In this document: positions 38,646 through 62,881 of the stretch, piece after piece
Position numbering within the stretch: position 1 is the stretch's first letter
Layout: each line of letters begins with the position of its first letter
DNA from: Candidatus Bathyarchaeota archaeon
GTDB taxonomy: Archaea > Thermoproteota > Bathyarchaeia > Bathyarchaeales > Bathyarchaeaceae
NCBI GenBank assembly: GCA_020348945.1
Contig: CP070759.1
Coordinates: 888,936-952,935, forward strand
Length of the DNA: 64,000 nucleotides
Direction: 5' to 3'
Program-made: the position numbers and the translations under genes
The notes under the pieces: model-generated
The model's database searches: none
Told to the model about the DNA's origin: nothing
Seen by the model: the letters and a program-made list of their open reading frames with translations, nothing else

Positions 38646-38745
38646 TGGTGCTCCGGCCGGGATTTGAACCCGGGTCGGCGGCTTTCTCTCCAGTGTTGTA
38701 GAGGACGAGAGGCCGCTATACTTGACCGGACTATACTACCGGAGC
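38646..38745 (-). tRNA. tRNA-Glu(CUC) with a 22-nt canonical (37/38) intron; CCA encoded
   Basis: Minus-strand read: GCUCCGG UA GUAU AGUCCGGUCAA GUAU A GCGGC CUCUCG[UCCUCUACAACACUGGAGAGAA]A GCCGC CGAC CCGGG UUCAAAU CCCGG CCGGAGC A CCA. The GCUCCGG acceptor is typical of archaeal tRNA-Glu. Confidence 0.85.
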
Positions 38746-38750
38746 GTATG

Positions 38751-38823
38751 TGGACCGGGCGGGAGTTGAACCCGCGACCTCCGCCGTGCGAGGGCGGCAT
38801 TCATGCCACTGAACTACCGGCCC
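38751..38823 (-). tRNA. tRNA-Ala(CGC)
   Basis: GGGCCGG UA GUUC AGUGGCAU GAAU G CCGCC CUCGCAC GGCGG AGGUC GCGGG UUCAACU CCCGC CCGGUCC A. G3:U70 identity pair present. No encoded CCA. 5 nt upstream of tRNA-Glu on the same strand. Confidence 0.9.
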
Positions 38824-52918: not shown

Positions 52919-53208
52919 TGAGTTCAACGACCTTTTCAGGTTAAAAATATAATTACGTCTCTTCTTTCTAACTTTTCGCATATTTTAATTTTTAAGTCCC
53001 ATATGACTAGATCTCTTTTATTCAAACAGTTCATTACCTCGGAAAGCCATTTCTAGCATGGATTTCAGTGGGTTGTTTACTTGGAATCGTTACTTTGAAT
53101 TATAATTGCTATTGTCGAGTATTGTTAAATATGCTGAATAAATATATTTATATGTCTCAGGATATATATTGTGTATTAATAGTTACGATATGCTTAGAAG
53201 GCACCGAA

Positions 53209-56200
53209 ATGAACGTCCTCTCAACATTTAGACGAAGAGAATTCATTAGTCTTCTCTTGCTGTGTTCTATAGCAATAACGGCGTCGGCAGGTGCCACGTT
53301 ATTTTTTTTGGTGGAAACAGGCGCTAAGTTGCCTTCATTGGAGAAGTTGAGCAGTCCTCTTCAGCAACAGTTAGACGAAGCTGATGATGTTGGTCGCGCG
53401 ATCACCCTGGTCATTAAGTTGCGTGATGCTGATTTTCGCGCTGACGAAAGTGGTACAACGGTTGATGTGTTGAGGTCGGGTGCAGATAGAGTTCAAGGGC
53501 GTGTGCTGGAGTTTTTGAGGGGAGAAAAGGATGCTGTGATTTTGAATACTTTTTGGCTCATTAACGCCATACTAGCTAACGTTACCGTTGACACCTTGTA
53601 CGAGCTCACTTACTTGGAGGATGTGGAGGAGGTTTTCGAAAACTTTGAGGTTACTGTTCCTGAAACCATGAGTGAAAGCAACATGAGTTCCAGTGACGTT
53701 ACGTGGGGTTTGGATAAAATTAATGCTCCAGAAGCTTGGGATCTAGGTTTCAACGGTTCGGATATACGCGTAGCCGTGTTAGACACGGGTGTTGACATAG
53801 GTCATCCAGACCTTGAGGGAAAAATGTGGACTGATAACGCGTCGGATCCAACGTTTCCTGGCGGATGGATTGAGTTCGACTGGTCTGGCAACGCTGTTAC
53901 AAATTCAACACCACACGACACACATGGCCACGGAACTCACGCATCCGGCACAGTTCTTGGGGGGAACGCGAGCAGCGTCGCTATAGGTGTCGCGCCAGGC
54001 GCTTGGCTCATGCACGGGTTAGTGTTGCCGTATGGTTCGGGGTCATTCGCTCAAGTTATAGCGGGTATGCAGTGGGCGGTAAATCCGTTTGATCAGTATG
54101 GAAATCCTGTAGGTGAGGGGGCGCATGTTGTTAGCATGTCTTGGGGCACCTACGGCTATTATGAAGAGATGATAGAACCTATTCAGAACATGAGGGCAGC
54201 TGGTGTGGTGCCAGTTGCGGCAGCAGGCAACAACGGGGAAGAATCGTCAGGGAGCCCAGGCAACGTTTACGAAAGCTTCGGAATCGGCGCCATAGACGAG
54301 TACGATAATGTTGCGTGGTGGAGTAGTGGTGAAGTGGTAGATTGGGCGGCTTCGCATTCTGAACCTTACATAAAACCAGATTTCAGTGCGCCAGGCGTAT
54401 ATATTTACTCATCTTTGCCCTCAGGAGAATGGGAATACTGGTCGGGCACATCAATGGCAACTCCACACGTGGCTGGAACTGTCGCGTTGATGCTTCATGC
54501 CAACCCGGATATGACCGTTGACAGCGTTTACGCTTTGCTCAAAATAACCGTGGAGGATCTGGGCGATGCTGGTCAAGACATTAGGTACGGTTGGGGCGTT
54601 ATCGATGCATACGCGGCTGTGGAACTGGCATTCTTGAACTCTGGTGTTGAAGGTTACGTGACAGATGCTGAAATCTCAGAGTTGATTGAATGGGGAGCTC
54701 AAGTAACCGCATTAGAAGTCTCGTGGGGAAGCAAACAAACAGACGCGGACGGATATTACAAAATCTGGTTGTATCCAGGCAATTACTCGTTAACAGCCAG
54801 CTCGTTTGGATACCATGAACAGAACGCCACAGCAGAGGTGGTTGAGAAGGAGTGGGCTAGGCTTGATTTCGAACTGGCACCGCTACCCCGAGGGTCTATC
54901 GCGGGTTTCGTTACTCGCGTTGGAATGGACAGTATTATAGCAAACGCAACCATTACGTTGTTGAACACGCCGTTAAGACCTACTGAAACAGACGACTCTG
55001 GTTACTACGTTATAGAAGCTCCAGTTGGAATCTATGATGTTGACGCTTGGAAATGGGGTTACAAGCCATCAGTAACCCGTTACGCGGAAGTCTTCGAAAA
55101 TCAAATCACAACCGTAGACGTTCAGTTGGAGTCAACTGTGAAGGTTGCAATATTAGGAGATTTTAGAGGGGAAATTACTGATCTTCTCATGAGGAACATC
55201 AGTGCTCACGAAAGAGAATGGAACGTGACGCAAGATATCTATAACTATGACGTGATTGTGGTTAACTTACCCACTGATCCGGGTAACGAAACTTTTTCTG
55301 CCTTAATTGACGCCGCTGATGGTTATCAAGTGGGGCTCGTCTTCACTAGCACATGGCCGGGACGGTGGTCGCCATACGGTATTTCTCTGTTACAACAGTA
55401 TTTCAATGATCCGAAGGGTTCGTACCATGCATATTCTGAGGGTGACGTGTATTATGAGGTGGCCACGAAACATCCAATCTTTGAAGGATGGAGTGTGGGT
55501 GAAAAAATATCTATTATCAACGGCGGCTGGTACGACTCCGCGTGGTTTTATCGTTATTCAGGGTTGACGATAGCGGATGTTGGTACTGACCGGATTGGTG
55601 TCATAGGCGGTGGTATTGCATATGATGTAAGGGAAAATGGGAATGTTCATCTACTTTTAGCTGGGCTTTCACAAAACATTTACACACACATCAGCAACGC
55701 TTGGACCGATGAAGCTAAGACGATTTTCATCCGTGCAGTAACGTGGGTCAGTGAGCCAGCGACACTGCCTCCCAGCATAACTATCGATCCAACCTCTGGT
55801 CCGTTGGGAACTAAGGTAACTGTTAGTGGATCAGGATTCGCGTTTAACTCAAGTGTCACGGTGAAGTTTGATGACTCGCCAATGGCAACTACCACAACCA
55901 ATGTTGATGGAAGTTTTGTAGCGGTCTTCAATGTGCCTGTGGCGGAGGCTGGTGCCCATGTGGTTAAGGCACTGGATGGTTACGGTGTCTACGCTGAAGC
56001 GGTGTATATGGTAACGGTGGCTGGTGGCACGGATGTGGATGTTTTAAGCGTGGAAGTGGATGTTGGCTCAGTGCACTTTAGGACAGAGGCAGCGGACTTT
56101 TACGTGCTCACGACTCTTAACGGGGTTCCTGTCAATGTCACCGAAATTAACGCAACAATTCACAAGCCTGATAGAACCGTCGAGACTTTGACTGCTGAAA

Positions 56201-56805
56201 ACGTAGTCACAGGCATCTATCTTGTAGCCTACAAAATTTCAGCTAATGCCTCTGATGGTACGTACACTTTAAGTGTCCAAGCGGATGCGGACGGGGTTAG
56301 TGGGGCTTCCCTCAGCAGTTTCTTGGTGAGTTTGACATTGACCGATTGGAGTGCTAGCCTCTTGGCCGTTAAAGATAATGTAGCCACTGTTCAGACGGAC
56401 ATTGGTGTGATCAAGGTGAATCTCGTGTCCACTGACGCTAAGATAGTTTCGGTGCAAGGAGATGTGGTGGTTATGGAAACTGATATTGGCGAGATTAAGG
56501 CTGATGTTGCTTACATTAAACCAATTGTTGAGAACACTAATGCTACGGTGGTTACAATTGATGGAGATGTAGCTACCATAGAGACTGCAGTTGGTGAGAT
56601 TCAAGGGATCATAGTTTCAATTCATGGGAGTGTTGCTGTGGTTGAGACAGATGTGGGTGTGGTGAAAGCGGATTTGCCTGATTCGAATGGGACAACTGCA
56701 GCTTTGAATTCGGTTAGCACAGCTGGGCTTTCTGTTTCATCGGTTTTGTCAGGGATTGTTGTGGTGGGATGTTGCATGGCGGTTTGGATTATGAGGAGGG
56801 AGTGA
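53209..56805 (+). CDS. large secreted subtilisin-family (S8) serine protease with accessory beta-sandwich domains and C-terminal TM anchor
   Basis: Catalytic triad blocks VAVLDTGV, HGHGTHASG, GTSMATPHVAG. Signal/TM after MNVLSTFRRREFISLLLL. CarboxypepD_reg-like segments (DADGYYKIWLYPGNYSL, DDSGYYVIEAPVGIYDV), an IPT-like PSITIDPTSGPLGTKVTVSGSGF and a terminal hydrophobic anchor. Confidence 0.92.
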   Translation: MNVLSTFRRREFISLLLLCSIAITASAGATLFFLVETGAKLPSLEKLSSPLQQQLDEADDVGRAITLVIKLRDADFRADESGTTVDVLRSGADRVQGRVLEFLRGEKDAVILNTFWLINAILANVTVDTLYELTYLEDVEEVFENFEVTVPETMSESNMSSSDVTWGLDKINAPEAWDLGFNGSDIRVAVLDTGVDIGHPDLEGKMWTDNASDPTFPGGWIEFDWSGNAVTNSTPHDTHGHGTHASGTVLGGNASSVAIGVAPGAWLMHGLVLPYGSGSFAQVIAGMQWAVNPFDQYGNPVGEGAHVVSMSWGTYGYYEEMIEPIQNMRAAGVVPVAAAGNNGEESSGSPGNVYESFGIGAIDEYDNVAWWSSGEVVDWAASHSEPYIKPDFSAPGVYIYSSLPSGEWEYWSGTSMATPHVAGTVALMLHANPDMTVDSVYALLKITVEDLGDAGQDIRYGWGVIDAYAAVELAFLNSGVEGYVTDAEISELIEWGAQVTALEVSWGSKQTDADGYYKIWLYPGNYSLTASSFGYHEQNATAEVVEKEWARLDFELAPLPRGSIAGFVTRVGMDSIIANATITLLNTPLRPTETDDSGYYVIEAPVGIYDVDAWKWGYKPSVTRYAEVFENQITTVDVQLESTVKVAILGDFRGEITDLLMRNISAHEREWNVTQDIYNYDVIVVNLPTDPGNETFSALIDAADGYQVGLVFTSTWPGRWSPYGISLLQQYFNDPKGSYHAYSEGDVYYEVATKHPIFEGWSVGEKISIINGGWYDSAWFYRYSGLTIADVGTDRIGVIGGGIAYDVRENGNVHLLLAGLSQNIYTHISNAWTDEAKTIFIRAVTWVSEPATLPPSITIDPTSGPLGTKVTVSGSGFAFNSSVTVKFDDSPMATTTTNVDGSFVAVFNVPVAEAGAHVVKALDGYGVYAEAVYMVTVAGGTDVDVLSVEVDVGSVHFRTEAADFYVLTTLNGVPVNVTEINATIHKPDRTVETLTAENVVTGIYLVAYKISANASDGTYTLSVQADADGVSGASLSSFLVSLTLTDWSASLLAVKDNVATVQTDIGVIKVNLVSTDAKIVSVQGDVVVMETDIGEIKADVAYIKPIVENTNATVVTIDGDVATIETAVGEIQGIIVSIHGSVAVVETDVGVVKADLPDSNGTTAALNSVSTAGLSVSSVLSGIVVVGCCMAVWIMRRE
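56359..56685 (+). repeat. four tandem ~25-aa coding repeats (V-x-V-(E/Q)-T-D-(I/V)-G-x-I-K) near the protease C-terminus
   Basis: DNVATVQTDIGVIKVNL / GDVVVMETDIGEIKADV / GDVATIETAVGEIQGII / GSVAVVETDVGVVKADL in the translated ORF. Confidence 0.7.
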
Positions 56806-56806
56806 A

Positions 56807-57250
56807 ATGGAATTAAACGTTGAAGTTCGTTGCAACCAGTTGAGAACTCTGTTGGCAAAGACAAGGTATACGTTGATTAGTTCGGCTTTGGGGTGGCTAG
56901 GTTCGATAAACATTGTTTTGATTGGGATTCATGTGACCACTATTTACCTTCACCTTGCTATGCTAAGCAGGTCTTTTCTAGTGAGAGCCTACATAATGGA
57001 AGGAATAGCAACCGCATTAACCTTGACACTTGTTTTCGGCAGCTACTTGATATGGAGAAACCAGACTGGAAGAGGAGGATTTTTAAATTTCGCTGGAGGA
57101 GTAGTGACCATTGTTTTGTGTTACTATTTCACTTCGACCTTTCCGTTGTTACGTCAACTTGAGCCGGTTGTATATTTTTTGCCTGCTCCAGCTTTAGTTA
57201 GCGGTCTCTTGGCGTTATTTATGTCGAAAAGTCCTTCGCAAAACATCTGA
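56807..57250 (+). CDS. integral membrane protein (4 TM), translationally coupled to the protease gene
   Basis: Start is 1 nt after the protease stop. Hydrophobic helices (IVLIGIHVTTIYLHLAML, ATALTLTLVFGSYLIW, VVTIVLCYYF, LPAPALVSGLLALFM). Confidence 0.55.
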   Translation: MELNVEVRCNQLRTLLAKTRYTLISSALGWLGSINIVLIGIHVTTIYLHLAMLSRSFLVRAYIMEGIATALTLTLVFGSYLIWRNQTGRGGFLNFAGGVVTIVLCYYFTSTFPLLRQLEPVVYFLPAPALVSGLLALFMSKSPSQNI

Positions 57251-57261
57251 GCATAATTTGG

Positions 57262-57468
57262 TGGTCGGGCGGGCAGGAGTTTCATGGAGGTTTTCCTCCA
57301 TTTTGAATTCGCCGAGCTAAAAGCTTGTTTTAAGCTCTCCTGCGACAACCCGGTGTCTGTGCGCTTGATAGGCTGGGTGAGCATCTACCTAGGGTAGGCG
57401 TCTACAGCGTCTCCGTCAGTCACGGTTGTGGCTGGCTCGGAAGCTCTACCAAGCTGAGCTACCGCCCG
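57262..57468 (-). tRNA. tRNA-Tyr(GUA), predicted to carry four introns (about 130 nt in total); CCA encoded
   Basis: Minus strand: perfect acceptor CGGGCGG/CCGCCCG with the C1:G72 pair and A73 (archaeal Tyr identity), D arm GCUC AGCUUGGUA GAGC. Removing plus-strand 57409-57437, 57355-57401, 57308-57338 and 57279-57301 gives CGGGCGGUAGCUCAGCUUGGUAGAGCUUCCGGCUGUAGACCGGGUUGUCGCAGGUUCAAAUCCUGCCCGCCCGA (74 nt). This has a canonical anticodon arm UCCGG-CUGUAGA-CCGGG and T arm GCAGG-UUCAAAU-CCUGC. Confidence 0.75.
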
Positions 57469-57538
57469 TTGCCCGACCAGAATGTTACTGAAGAAAGTTT
57501 CTCATTTATACATTTCGTTGTCTTGTTTGGAGTTTCAT

Positions 57539-60581: not shown

Positions 60582-61493
60582 TTGAAGATGCTTTACTACC
60601 ACATTTATACTAAATATACGGCGAAAAATGGAAAAAAGAAAAAATCTTTCATGTTTAATTACTCGAAAAAAGAAATGGAAAGACTGTTTGCCGTTCCCTA
60701 CATGAAAAATAAAGCCGTTCCAATTTTTGGGGGATTTGTTCCTGCATCAGCCATAGATACTATTCGCATTTTCAAATCCAAAAAGCCATTCGAAGAAATA
60801 ATTCTTCCAGATGGAATATCCTCTGTTGAAAATCCACAAGAGCGTGTGTCTTACATTGTGGATTGCATTAGTTTAAGGAAAGTGCAAGGTGTTGATGACT
60901 CCACACTTACTTTTATTACTTCACCACCACAGAAAGAAGTAAAACCGATTAAATCACTCACTAAACCACTTGGCAAAAAGGAAAAGGTATTCATAGTTCA
61001 CGGTAGAGACGAAACCCAAGCATCGAGGCTTCAAAAATACTTGACAAAAACGTTGAAAATTGACGCTACAATGTTTGAAAACTTCAAGGAAAAAAGCGGT
61101 AGCAACACAATAATTGAGCAACTTGAATATATTAAGGACAACGTGGGTTATGCCTTTGTTATTGTTACGCCAGACGATTTAGGTTGCCTACGTGAAAATA
61201 TTGACAAATGCAGAACCACCATGCTGACAGGCAAGAAAAATATTACTGTAAAGAGCGTTTGTGACATTCTTGATAATCTTAATGCGAGGGCACATCAAAA
61301 CGTTGTTTTTGAACACGGACTTTTCACAGGTGCTTTAGAAAGAGACAGAGTATGTTGCCTTCTTCAAAAAGACACTAAAGAGAAGCCAAGCGACATTGAC
61401 GGAATCCTTTATGTGGGTTTCAAAAAATCTGTGAAAGAAACATTCAGTGAAATAACTGAAAAACTGAAAAAGGCTGGGCTAGTCAAAACTTAA
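60582..61493 (+). CDS. protein with C-terminal TIR-like nucleotide-binding domain (CAP12/PycTIR-type, COG4271-like) and an unknown ~130-aa N-terminal domain
   Basis: KVFIVHGRDETQASRLQKYL...TIIEQLEYIKDNVGYAFVIVTPDDLG...ARAHQNVVFEHGLFTGALERDRVCCLLQKDTKEKPSDIDGILYV follows the family pattern VFIVHG-x-D ... TIIEKFE ... FAVVLLTPDD ... RARQNVIFELGYF-x-GKLGR-x-RV ... PSDL-x-G as I remember it. Confidence 0.75.
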   Translation: MKMLYYHIYTKYTAKNGKKKKSFMFNYSKKEMERLFAVPYMKNKAVPIFGGFVPASAIDTIRIFKSKKPFEEIILPDGISSVENPQERVSYIVDCISLRKVQGVDDSTLTFITSPPQKEVKPIKSLTKPLGKKEKVFIVHGRDETQASRLQKYLTKTLKIDATMFENFKEKSGSNTIIEQLEYIKDNVGYAFVIVTPDDLGCLRENIDKCRTTMLTGKKNITVKSVCDILDNLNARAHQNVVFEHGLFTGALERDRVCCLLQKDTKEKPSDIDGILYVGFKKSVKETFSEITEKLKKAGLVKT

Positions 61494-61675: not shown

Positions 61676-62881
61676 ATGAAACCTTTCAGCTTCGTCCACG
61701 TGGCTGACCTACACCTAGGCTACACACAGTACAATTCAGACACTCGACGAGAAGACTTCAACACAGCATTCCAAGAGGTAGTGGACAAAACCATCGAGCT
61801 GAAACCAGATTTCATGATCATCGCAGGAGACTTTTTCCAACACGCCCGCCCATCCAACATCACCCTCGAAAACGCTATAACCAGTTTCAGGCGACTCAGA
61901 GACGCCGGGATACCCGTGCTGACCGTGGACGGCTCCCACGACTCAGCGCCCAACGTGATCACAGGCACCATTCTTAACCCCCTGGACAGCGCTGGCCTAA
62001 TCCAGTATCTGCCCCGCCAAGAAGGAGCTTGTTGGCGAAACGAAAGCTGCTACGTTTACGGAGTCCCCAACTTCCGAACAAAACAAAGAACTGAGGAGCA
62101 ACTGCCTATTTTTATGGAAGAAAACAAGCCAACACCCAACTCTTCCCTCTTCAACATCTTTGTTTTCCACATGGGCCTAGACATTCCCAGAGTGAGTCGC
62201 CACCAAATGGAAGCAGAAGCTCGACCAGAACTCTTCCCAAAAGGCTTCAACTATTACGCAGGTGGCCACATTCACATCCCAAGCACGGATTCATTCAAAA
62301 AAGGAATCCTCGTTTACAGCGGATGCACCGAAACCGTAAGCTACGAGGACGCCAAAGTTGAAAAAGGCTTCTACCATGTAAAAGTCAACGAAAAAGGCAT
62401 TCCCAAACTTCACCGCATCAAACTCGAAACCCCCCGACGCTTCATCATCCTAAGTCACGACTACAGCGGCTCAACCCCCTCAACAATCACAAAGAAGGCA
62501 ACGCAACTAGTGAAAGAAGCTGACAAAGCCGGAGCAGTAATCATTCCCGTACTGCGAGGAACGTTACCCACAGAAGCTGGACGATGGGAAATTGACCTCG
62601 CCAAAATCAAAAACGCCGCAGAGAAAGCGCTCCTCGTACGTCCCCTTATCCAACTGACACAAACCGAAATTTCCGAAGAGGTTGTCCGCTCCATATTTGA
62701 GGGCAAACTCAAAGACCTCAAGACAAAAGCGTTTGAATACTTTCTTGAAATTTTCTCGGATCGCTACCCTCAGCAAGCTGAAAGAATTGCCCGACTCGCC
62801 GTGGACCTTATGGAGCCGTTAGTGAGGAAGGAAGACACCGAGGTAAAGGAAGCTCTGGAGGAGTTTTCAAGTGAGAATTAA
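61676..62881 (+). CDS. mre11: DNA double-strand-break repair nuclease Mre11
   Basis: Phosphoesterase motifs FVHVADLHLG, IIAGDFF, VDGSHD, VFHMG, YYAGGHIH. Confidence 0.92.
   Translation: MKPFSFVHVADLHLGYTQYNSDTRREDFNTAFQEVVDKTIELKPDFMIIAGDFFQHARPSNITLENAITSFRRLRDAGIPVLTVDGSHDSAPNVITGTILNPLDSAGLIQYLPRQEGACWRNESCYVYGVPNFRTKQRTEEQLPIFMEENKPTPNSSLFNIFVFHMGLDIPRVSRHQMEAEARPELFPKGFNYYAGGHIHIPSTDSFKKGILVYSGCTETVSYEDAKVEKGFYHVKVNEKGIPKLHRIKLETPRRFIILSHDYSGSTPSTITKKATQLVKEADKAGAVIIPVLRGTLPTEAGRWEIDLAKIKNAAEKALLVRPLIQLTQTEISEEVVRSIFEGKLKDLKTKAFEYFLEIFSDRYPQQAERIARLAVDLMEPLVRKEDTEVKEALEEFSSEN

Follow-up and report, generated by a model that had tools for sequence, protein, structure and literature searches.

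Gene organization and mature tRNA

The stretch of DNA analyzed here, hereafter the window, comprises 64,000 nucleotides (nt) from a Candidatus Bathyarchaeota archaeon (assembly GCA_020348945.1, contig CP070759.1, positions 888,936 to 952,935), and all positions below are those of the window. Its minus strand carries an interrupted tRNA-Tyr(GUA) gene consisting of five exon pieces and four inserts, as listed here.

57468-57265, minus strand: tRNA-Tyr(GUA) gene, C1 to A73, span 204 nt
57438..57468, minus strand: exon 1, positions 1-30, acceptor 5' strand, D arm, and first four nt of the anticodon stem
57409..57437, minus strand: intron 1, 29 nt, site 30/31
57402..57408, minus strand: exon 2, 7-nt micro-exon, positions 31-37 (G, CUGU, AG), holding the anticodon GUA
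57355..57401, minus strand: intron 2, 47 nt, canonical 37/38 site
57339..57354, minus strand: exon 3, positions 38-53, anticodon stem 3' strand, variable loop, and T stem 5' strand
57308..57338, minus strand: intron 3, 31 nt, site 53/54
57302..57307, minus strand: exon 4, 6-nt micro-exon, positions 54-59 (UUCAAA), T loop
57279..57301, minus strand: intron 4, 23 nt, site 59/60
57265..57278, minus strand: exon 5, positions 60-73, U60, T stem 3' strand, acceptor 3' strand, and discriminator A73
57259..57264, minus strand: encoded CCA followed by a second CCA (CCACCA), read from the sequence

The first-pass annotation of this locus had proposed a tRNA-Tyr(GUA) from which four introns, at 30/31, 37/38, 53/54, and 59/60, have to be removed. 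When the minus strand was cut at the coordinates it gave, the insert sizes and sequences agreed base for base, and the proposal itself was borne out by the cloverleaf fold, by ARAGORN on the spliced form, and by the orthologues described below. The spliced exons read CGGGCGG-UA-GCUC-AGCUUGGUA-GAGC-U-UCCGG-CUGUAGA-CCGGG-UUGUC-GCAGG-UUCAAAU-CCUGC-CCGCCCG-A and fold into a canonical cloverleaf with C1:G72, A73, and the anticodon GUA. In archaea and eukaryotes, C1:G72 and A73, together with this anticodon, form the tyrosine identity set for tyrosyl-tRNA synthetase (TyrRS). The identity positions (C1 at 57468, G72 at 57266, A73 at 57265, and G34-U35-A36 at 57405-57403) were invariant in all orthologues, an invariance that at positions 1-26 (except 17) and 66-73 is partly by construction, as the search pattern and the end anchor fixed those bases. 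On direct reading of the sequence, the insert boundaries cannot slide without altering the mature sequence.

ARAGORN called the spliced sequence tRNA-Tyr(gta) and made no call on the unspliced gene, and the genomic locus was also missed by Rfam, both at the gathering threshold and at E ≤ 1. This is a limit of the tools and not evidence against the gene. No second, competing tRNA-like locus was found within the 64-kb window, even at E ≤ 1. Group I and group II introns have a catalytic core of hundreds of nt with conserved paired regions; the inserts measure 23-47 nt, and no Rfam intron family was found at the locus (E ≤ 1), which argues against either class. The arrangement is also not that of a split or permuted tRNA gene, as the five exon pieces are co-linear on one strand within 204 nt.

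Orthologous genes in Bathyarchaeia

Species-representative genomes were scanned with the 5' exon pattern CGGGCGGTAGCTCAGCNTGGTAGAGC, in which position 17 was left free. The scan returned at least 119 loci, nearly all in metagenome-assembled genomes (MAGs) of Bathyarchaeia, and the matched loci are labeled L002 to L120. The orthologue counts given here are samples among the matches listed and not totals, and 105 genes were analyzable. For parsing, the mature tRNA was aligned spliced to each gene; in addition, 107 distinct genes were aligned with MAFFT (alignment A1).

Across the matched genomes the span from position 1 to A73 ranged from 119 to 230 nt. The mature sequence was near-invariant in the 105 analyzable genes and was interrupted solely at 30/31, 37/38, 53/54, and 59/60, with one to four inserts each. 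The 37/38 intron was present in every Bathyarchaeia gene examined; it was the only intron in 14 parsed genes, while the majority had the 30/31 and 37/38 introns. Three kinds of three-intron sets were found, namely 30/31+37/38+59/60, 37/38+53/54+59/60, and 30/31+37/38+53/54. All four introns occurred in at least 14 species besides that of the window (L002, L003, L005, L008, L030, L032, L041, L053, L055, L073, L085, L102, L107, and L108). Genes without one, two, or three of the inserts showed exactly the predicted exon-exon junctions, a recurrence well beyond what chance would give. Alignment A1 displayed clean indels at 30/31 and 37/38, and the T-arm junctions were taken from the anchored analysis. 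Because each insert occurs independently of the others and a precise junction is found where it is lacking, the four segments are recognized as introns whose boundaries have been placed correctly, and this is the best available proof of the gene structure.

Eight loci without a recognizable 3' end, together with L080, L087, and L041, were checked individually and proved to be truncated, masked, bacterial, or ordinary one- or two-intron genes, except that L041 turned out to be a normal four-intron gene. Among the matches listed, the interrupted gene was the sole 5'-exon match in nearly every genome. These single-match genomes include two complete chromosomes, which carry the one- and two-intron forms. 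Seven loci (L018, L050, L076, L097, L100, L116, and L117) came from bacterial MAGs (Eremiobacterota, Proteobacteria, Acidiferrales, and others) with uninterrupted tRNAs of 74-75 nt. The first 26 nt of these tRNAs are identical to the Bathyarchaeia tRNA-Tyr 5' exon, and their anticodon loop, UUUGGGA, is tRNA-Pro-like. The bacterial matches are a coincidental likeness of acceptor and D arm and not orthology. A metagenome scan with CGGCGANTTCAAAAT, which covers micro-exon 4 and the adjoining intron ends, returned 120 loci, none of them tRNA-Tyr, the pattern being too short for that collection.

The 15 genes with four introns allowed exons and introns to be compared. Exon positions outside the search pattern were 98.3% identical, whereas the four introns were 64-76% identical and the 45 nt upstream 65%. 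The changes that did occur in the T stem exons were compensatory across the intron sites and affected three pairs, G:C to A:U, A:U to C:G, and C:G to U:A. In 17 orthologues (for example L004, L017, L021, L073, and L085) the T stem reads GCAGG/CCCGC, with an A51.C63 mismatch where the others have A:U; this mismatch is tolerated or possibly protonated.

Splicing motifs at the four sites

The bulge-helix-bulge (BHB) motif has a 4-bp central helix between two 3-nt bulges on opposite strands, and splicing takes place after the second bulge nucleotide. The strict form, hBHBh', additionally requires two outer helices, an exon-side one (h) and an intron-side one (h'), each at least 2 bp long and closing a bulge. 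This geometry was applied to every intron of every species, with exon positions -6 to -3 paired with intron positions -6 to -3 and with bulges made up of two nt before each splice site and one after. A BHB or relaxed motif had to be expected at each junction if the first-pass reading was right, and a central helix with 3-nt bulges was found at all four, in relaxed form at 53/54. One motif is strict (59/60) and three are relaxed, 37/38 being of the hBH type and 30/31 and 53/54 of the HBh' type. Across species the bulges are CG↓A, AG↓R, GG↓A, and AA↓A (the arrow marks the splice site), and their length of 3 nt is kept.

At 59/60 the window gene forms a perfect hBHBh' motif (-17.1 kcal/mol) in which the 5-bp T stem serves as exon helix, followed by the central helix UUCA/UGAA, the bulges AA↓A and AC↓U, and a 6-bp intron hairpin. 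The central helix (UUCA/UGAR) was complete (4/4) in 22/24 species, and pairs 2-4 of the intron helix were 100% paired with AU/GC exchange. At 37/38, C32-U35 (CUGU) pairs with ACAG over 4 bp, the bulges are AG↓A and AC↓A, and the anticodon stem acts as exon helix, giving hBH plus a hairpin. This central helix (CUGU/RCAG) was complete in 104/105 species, with an exon helix of 5-6 bp.

At 30/31, C25-C28 (CUUC) pairs with GGAG over 4 bp, with bulges CG↓A and AC↓G and an intron hairpin containing two C.A mismatches. The central helix was complete in 91/91 species (100% paired). All six tested pairs of the intron helix had changed on both sides, 94.8% of the cells were paired compared with 30-63% in slid controls, and 0/500 shuffles reached the observed score. 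At 53/54, CGC(A) faces (G)GCG between the bulges GG↓A and AA↓U, with the intron helix GAGCU/AGCUC and no exon helix. The central helix consisted of 3 bp plus A.G in 16/18 species and of 4 bp in 2/18, and the five innermost pairs of the intron helix were 100% paired with one to four standard pair types each. Pair exchanges of this kind show that the intron helices at 30/31, 53/54, and 59/60 covary. Cleavage at the relaxed 53/54 motif would call for a broad-specificity endonuclease.

In both micro-exons every nucleotide belongs to a splicing motif. Exon 2 starts with the third bulge nt of intron 1 and continues with the exon strand of the intron 2 central helix and two bulge nt, and exon 4 (UUCA-AA) comprises the exon strand of the intron 4 central helix and two bulge nt. 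The motifs also share bases. The 30/31 motif uses C25-C28, which belong to the D stem and the anticodon stem, and the 53/54 motif uses C48-A51, T stem bases included, while the 37/38 and 59/60 motifs need the intact anticodon stem and T stem, respectively, as outer helix. Because of these shared stem bases, the 30/31 and 37/38 motifs would be mutually exclusive conformers, and so would the 53/54 and 59/60 motifs.

Promoter, leader, and 3' end

Two elements were recognized upstream of C1.

57504..57517, minus strand: archaeal promoter, CGAAA resembling a transcription factor B recognition element (BRE), then TATA box TATAAAT (box 57504-57510), TATA center about 39 nt upstream of C1
57469..57479, minus strand: 5' leader UGGUCGGGCAA, in which UGGU is complementary to A73-C-C-A and the 7-nt CGGGCAA repeats part of the acceptor 5' strand

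The promoter motif CGAAAnnCATAAAT was kept upstream of the orthologues, with the TATA center at -29 to -32 in 75/103 species and at -35 to -40 in 17/103. Ten genomes, that of the window among them, carry extra leader bases after UGGU or UAGU, and the TATA spacing therefore appears to be kept relative to the start of the leader; the distance of 39 nt in the window matches the 7-nt insertion in its leader. From the usual archaeal TATA spacing, a leader of only about 4-6 nt would be predicted in the orthologues. The motif NGGU directly before C1 is widespread (UGGU in 29 species and CGGU in 10; the UGGU of the window lies at 57476-57479), and the promoter spacing implies that transcription would start at about this motif. 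As NGGU is complementary to A73-C74-C75(-A76), it extends the acceptor helix of the precursor over the encoded CCA. The CCA was encoded in 95/103 species.

The first-pass annotation had drawn attention to the CCACCA tail and to an alternative register in which the leader pairs with the 3' end. Both are present, but neither is conserved, with 11/103 species for CCACCA and 4/103 for the register. The leader GGUCGGGC pairs with GCCCGACC, and this pairing dominates the minimum free energy (MFE) fold of the precursor; it arises because CGGGCAA is inserted between the common leader UGGU and C1. Among the 103 species, just four carry a CGGGC(A/G)A insertion (that of the window, L024, L102, and L113), and two more, L002 and L108, have a degenerate version of it. 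We regard both features as lineage-specific, with the look of a partial duplication. Two further ideas were rejected on the same counts: an endonuclease cut of the leader, for which a 9-bp helix with positions 68-76 and an AAC bulge ending at C1 could be drawn (the insertion occurs in only four species), and a role of CCACCA as a conserved tag (11/103 species).

Pairing between the 37/38 intron and the D arm

A segment of intron 2 was found to be complementary to the D arm of exon 1.

57442..57454, minus strand: exon segment G15-U26 (GCUUGGUAGAGCU), partner of the 37/38 intron
57363..57374, minus strand: intron 2 segment AGCCUAUCAAGC, forming a 12-bp helix with exon G15-U26, A23 bulged

Across species the 37/38 intron contains a near-invariant 14-mer, CAGCCUACCAAGCG, the core of which is complementary to exon G15-G22. 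All nine core pairs were kept in 103/105 species, single-intron species included, and since the helix is present where 37/38 is the only intron, it is independent of the extra introns. Position 17, the sole variable exon base of the stretch, covaries with its partner (U:A 80, C:G 22, others 3), and all other variants on the intron side are transitions from Watson-Crick to GU pairs. Shuffled introns reached 9/9 pairs in 1.3% of trials. An unconstrained fold recovered the helix and extended it by pairing G24-U26 with AGC, leaving A23 bulged. In alignment A1 the 12-bp helix was 99.4% paired compared with 28-46% for slid controls, and the duplex was calculated at -17.7 kcal/mol compared with -3.0 for the native D hairpin alone. 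The covariation shows that the helix forms in the precursor, between the 37/38 intron segment and the D loop together with the 3' strand of the D stem.

An intron-encoded guide RNA was also considered for this segment. In the box C/D guide of the Haloferax pre-tRNA-Trp intron, a C box (RUGAUGA) and a D box (CUGA) flank the guide complementary to the exon. A box C/D or H/ACA guide in intron 2 was rejected, as no conserved boxes adjoin the segment on inspection and no Rfam small RNA matched. No published description of a pairing between a D arm and a tRNA intron was found in the searchable literature, which is incomplete, and the intron-anticodon interactions described there do not include a 12-bp pairing of intron and D arm, as far as that literature was searched. 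If the helix has the functional role in the precursor considered below, it would be an exon-intron interaction new for protein-spliced tRNA introns.

Proposed processing of the precursor

The gene would be transcribed from its own BRE/TATA promoter into a precursor of about 220-230 nt with a short leader. The splicing endonuclease EndA would remove the four introns, and RtcB would join the exons; one paper reports EndA and RtcB in all archaeal genomes surveyed. The 30/31 intron would likely be removed before the 37/38 intron, and the 53/54 intron before the 59/60 intron. This order agrees with the remark that closely spaced introns must come out sequentially (tRNAscan-SE 2.0 paper, 2021) and with the ordered removal described for a three-intron algal tRNA. 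Additionally, the helix between intron 2 and the D arm would keep the unspliced RNA out of the cloverleaf and the L-shape and would free C25 for the 30/31 motif.

Functional significance and alternative explanations

The exons are conserved while introns and flanks have diverged, the T stem changes are compensatory, and the promoter and the splicing motifs are kept, which together argue for a functional gene and not for a pseudogene. From these comparative sequence data we infer, with a probability of roughly 0.88, that this member of Bathyarchaeia uses the locus as its functional tRNA-Tyr(GUA) gene and that four protein-spliced introns are removed from its precursor. Several points weigh against this reading. 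The exon helix at 30/31 is just 2 bp long and competes with other pairings, and at 53/54 the central helix has 3 bp plus A.G without an exon-side helix, so that a permissive enzyme is needed at both sites. The intron-side helix at 37/38 is weak, with 0-1 consecutive bp in register, and the covariation counts take no account of phylogeny. A second, uninterrupted tRNA-Tyr gene could also lie outside the 64-kb window.

In one alternative, the locus would be a decaying tRNA-Tyr pseudogene that had acquired insertions while a working gene served elsewhere in the genome. Such a history would account for the failure of standard tRNA finders and for relaxed motifs at two of the four junctions, and the window covers only 64 kb of the genome. 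It is nevertheless very improbable, because the exons have stayed 98% identical where the introns diverged to 64-76% and the flanks diverged too, because T stem pairs were restored by compensatory changes and the motif helices and promoter were maintained, and because in nearly every listed genome, including the two complete chromosomes with one- and two-intron forms, the interrupted gene is the only 5'-exon match. There is a similarly slight chance that fewer than four introns are present, with the inserts being parts of a larger unit or with other splice sites yielding a non-standard tRNA. The two tiny exons of 7 and 6 nt might be taken in this sense, and ARAGORN forces single-intron parses (tRNA-Asp, odd intron sizes) on partly spliced versions. 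However, the inserts occur independently in six different sets across species, alignment A1 has clean indels at 30/31 and 37/38, the boundaries are non-slidable, and every insert has a central helix and bulges of its own. An assembly or binning artefact, such as a chimeric contig or collapsed strains, is hardly credible: the window is derived from a metagenome and the protein encoded next to the gene has its only exact match in one Logan assembly, but the same architecture recurs, with diverged introns, in 14 genomes that were assembled independently and stem from different studies and sites.

The role of the intron 2/D-arm helix is a separate matter within the four-intron reading. It might, on a tentative view, be a functional element of the precursor that acts as a lock or chaperone against the L-shaped fold and premature use, unzips the D stem for the 30/31 motif, and sets the order of removal. 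If this is true, it could account for the tolerance of up to three additional introns in this tRNA throughout an archaeal class. The helix crosses the 37/38 central helix in a pseudoknot topology, and in 36 species, including that of the window, only 2 nt lie between the intron strands, which is sterically awkward; the two helices may alternate instead of coexisting. This awkwardness speaks for a rival reading in which the four inserts are removed but the complementarity acts in trans, for example through an excised, possibly circularised intron acting on the mature tRNA, or as a binding site for a protein or guide RNA. The retention of the segment even where 37/38 is the only intron also fits a trans role. 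We consider such a role unlikely, as all intron-side variation keeps the pairing with the exon of the same gene, the variable exon base covaries, the cis pairing is strongly favored energetically and was found by the unconstrained fold, and no Rfam guide RNA family is present at the locus.

Comparison with known multi-intron tRNA genes

The first-pass annotation had put the described maximum at three introns per tRNA gene. Reviews say the same for archaea (Fujishima and Kanai, 2014; tRNAscan-SE 2.0 paper, 2021), but this is out of date, since four have been tabulated for Asgard archaea (PMC11291895). In the table of Supplementary Data 4 (Valentin-Alvarado et al., 2024; PMC11291895), whose columns run to 'intron 4', four introns are given for the Freyarchaeia tRNA-Arg(TCT) and tRNA-Ile2(CAT) by both tRNAscan-SE and R2DT, and for the Freyarchaeia tRNA-Leu(GAG) and the Atabeyarchaeia-2 tRNA-Trp(CCA) by R2DT. 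The four introns found here thus tie the highest number on record, and the mechanism is already known. The Asgard genes are alike in having four introns in one archaeal tRNA gene that tRNAscan-SE detects only in part, and tRNA-Tyr is heavily interrupted there as well, with three introns in the two Atabeyarchaeia (PMC11291895). They differ in phylum and in the tRNAs concerned, and they are known from three genomes in a supplementary table without comparative or motif analysis, whereas a graded series of about 105 species is available here.

In Thermoproteales (for example Pyrobaculum calidifontis, Thermofilum, and Caldivirga), tRNA genes similarly carry short BHB introns at canonical and non-canonical positions, neighboring introns lie so close that one must go first, and relaxed motifs point to an endonuclease of broad specificity. 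The reported maximum in that order is three per gene, compared with four in the Bathyarchaeia gene. Intron transposition between tRNA genes has also been reported there, but no counterpart was seen in the approximately 0.9 Mb of Bathyarchaeia DNA searched: when up to 3 mismatches were allowed, further copies of the introns at 30/31, 53/54, and 59/60 amounted to one isolated match without a pattern, which lends no support to intron mobility in this sample. The nuclear tRNA-Ile(UAU) of Cyanidioschyzon merolae is comparable, as its D arm, its 37/38 site, and its T loop each hold an intron with a BHB. It differs in belonging to a eukaryotic red alga and in having three introns, and its ordered removal, outer introns before 37/38, has been shown experimentally, whereas the order in Bathyarchaeia is only predicted. 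A canonical tRNA-Tyr intron is conserved in eukaryotes and in many archaea. In eukaryotes it is near-universal and needed for specific modifications (PMC12168002), and this parallels the constant 37/38 intron of Bathyarchaeia.

The T-arm introns showed an uneven distribution among the orthologues. Intron 4, AUGAAGGUUUCACUUCAUGAAAG, was identical in nine species though introns 1 and 2 differed considerably (loci sharing it are L002, L008, L030, L032, L055, L073, L102, and L108), and in L107 it was one base off. L003 was near-identical to L033 and L099 in its flanks and in introns 1 and 2, yet its intron 4 was different and it had an intron 3 in addition. These patterns suggest that the T-arm intron pair has been exchanged or replaced as a cassette by recombination or transfer.

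No published analysis of tRNA introns in Bathyarchaeia was found in the literature search, which likewise gave no Bathyarchaeia-specific information on the type of splicing endonuclease, and to our knowledge both the comparative intron series and the helix between the D arm and the intron are new. Our results extend extreme tRNA fragmentation, with four introns and exons of 6-7 nt, to Bathyarchaeia, which are among the most abundant uncultured archaeal groups. Because standard finders miss the gene, tRNA-Tyr may be scored as missing, which would bias estimates of completeness and decoding. With intron numbers graded from one to four, fixed sites, and an invariant mature tRNA, the roughly 105 species make an unusually clean natural experiment, with which the gain, loss, and exchange of BHB introns and the handling of overlapping, exclusive motifs by the endonuclease can be addressed. 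The covarying D-arm/intron helix likewise offers a testable hypothesis for a role of tRNA introns in precursor folding.

Other features of the window

The other two tRNA genes of the window are tRNA-Ala(CGC) and an intron-containing tRNA-Glu(CUC), which lie 5 nt apart at 38646-38823 on the minus strand and are presumably co-transcribed. ARAGORN reported the second as 'tRNA-???' with a 4-base anticodon; resolved by hand, it is tRNA-Glu(CUC), whose one canonical intron measures 22 nt and has CUCU/AGAG as a perfect central helix. The CCA is encoded in the Glu and Tyr genes of the window, and the Ala gene is without it.

Four protein-coding genes lie near the tRNA-Tyr gene.

53068-56805, plus strand: 1245-aa subtilase with carboxypeptidase-regulatory-like, TIG, and MG2 domains
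56807-57250, plus strand: 147-aa protein, no Pfam match
60582-61493, plus strand: 303-aa protein with a C-terminal CAP12/Pycsar-type TIR effector domain (Pfam PF10137, E 3.5e-29)
61676-62881: calcineurin-like phosphoesterase

The gene of the 147-aa protein and the tRNA-Tyr gene are convergent, the stop codon of the former lying at a distance of 9 nt from the 3' end of the latter, and an exact match to the 147-aa protein was found in a single Logan metagenome assembly only. The phosphoesterase gene adjoins that of the 303-aa protein, whose TIR domain suggests a putative anti-virus defence gene about 3 kb from the tRNA-Tyr gene.

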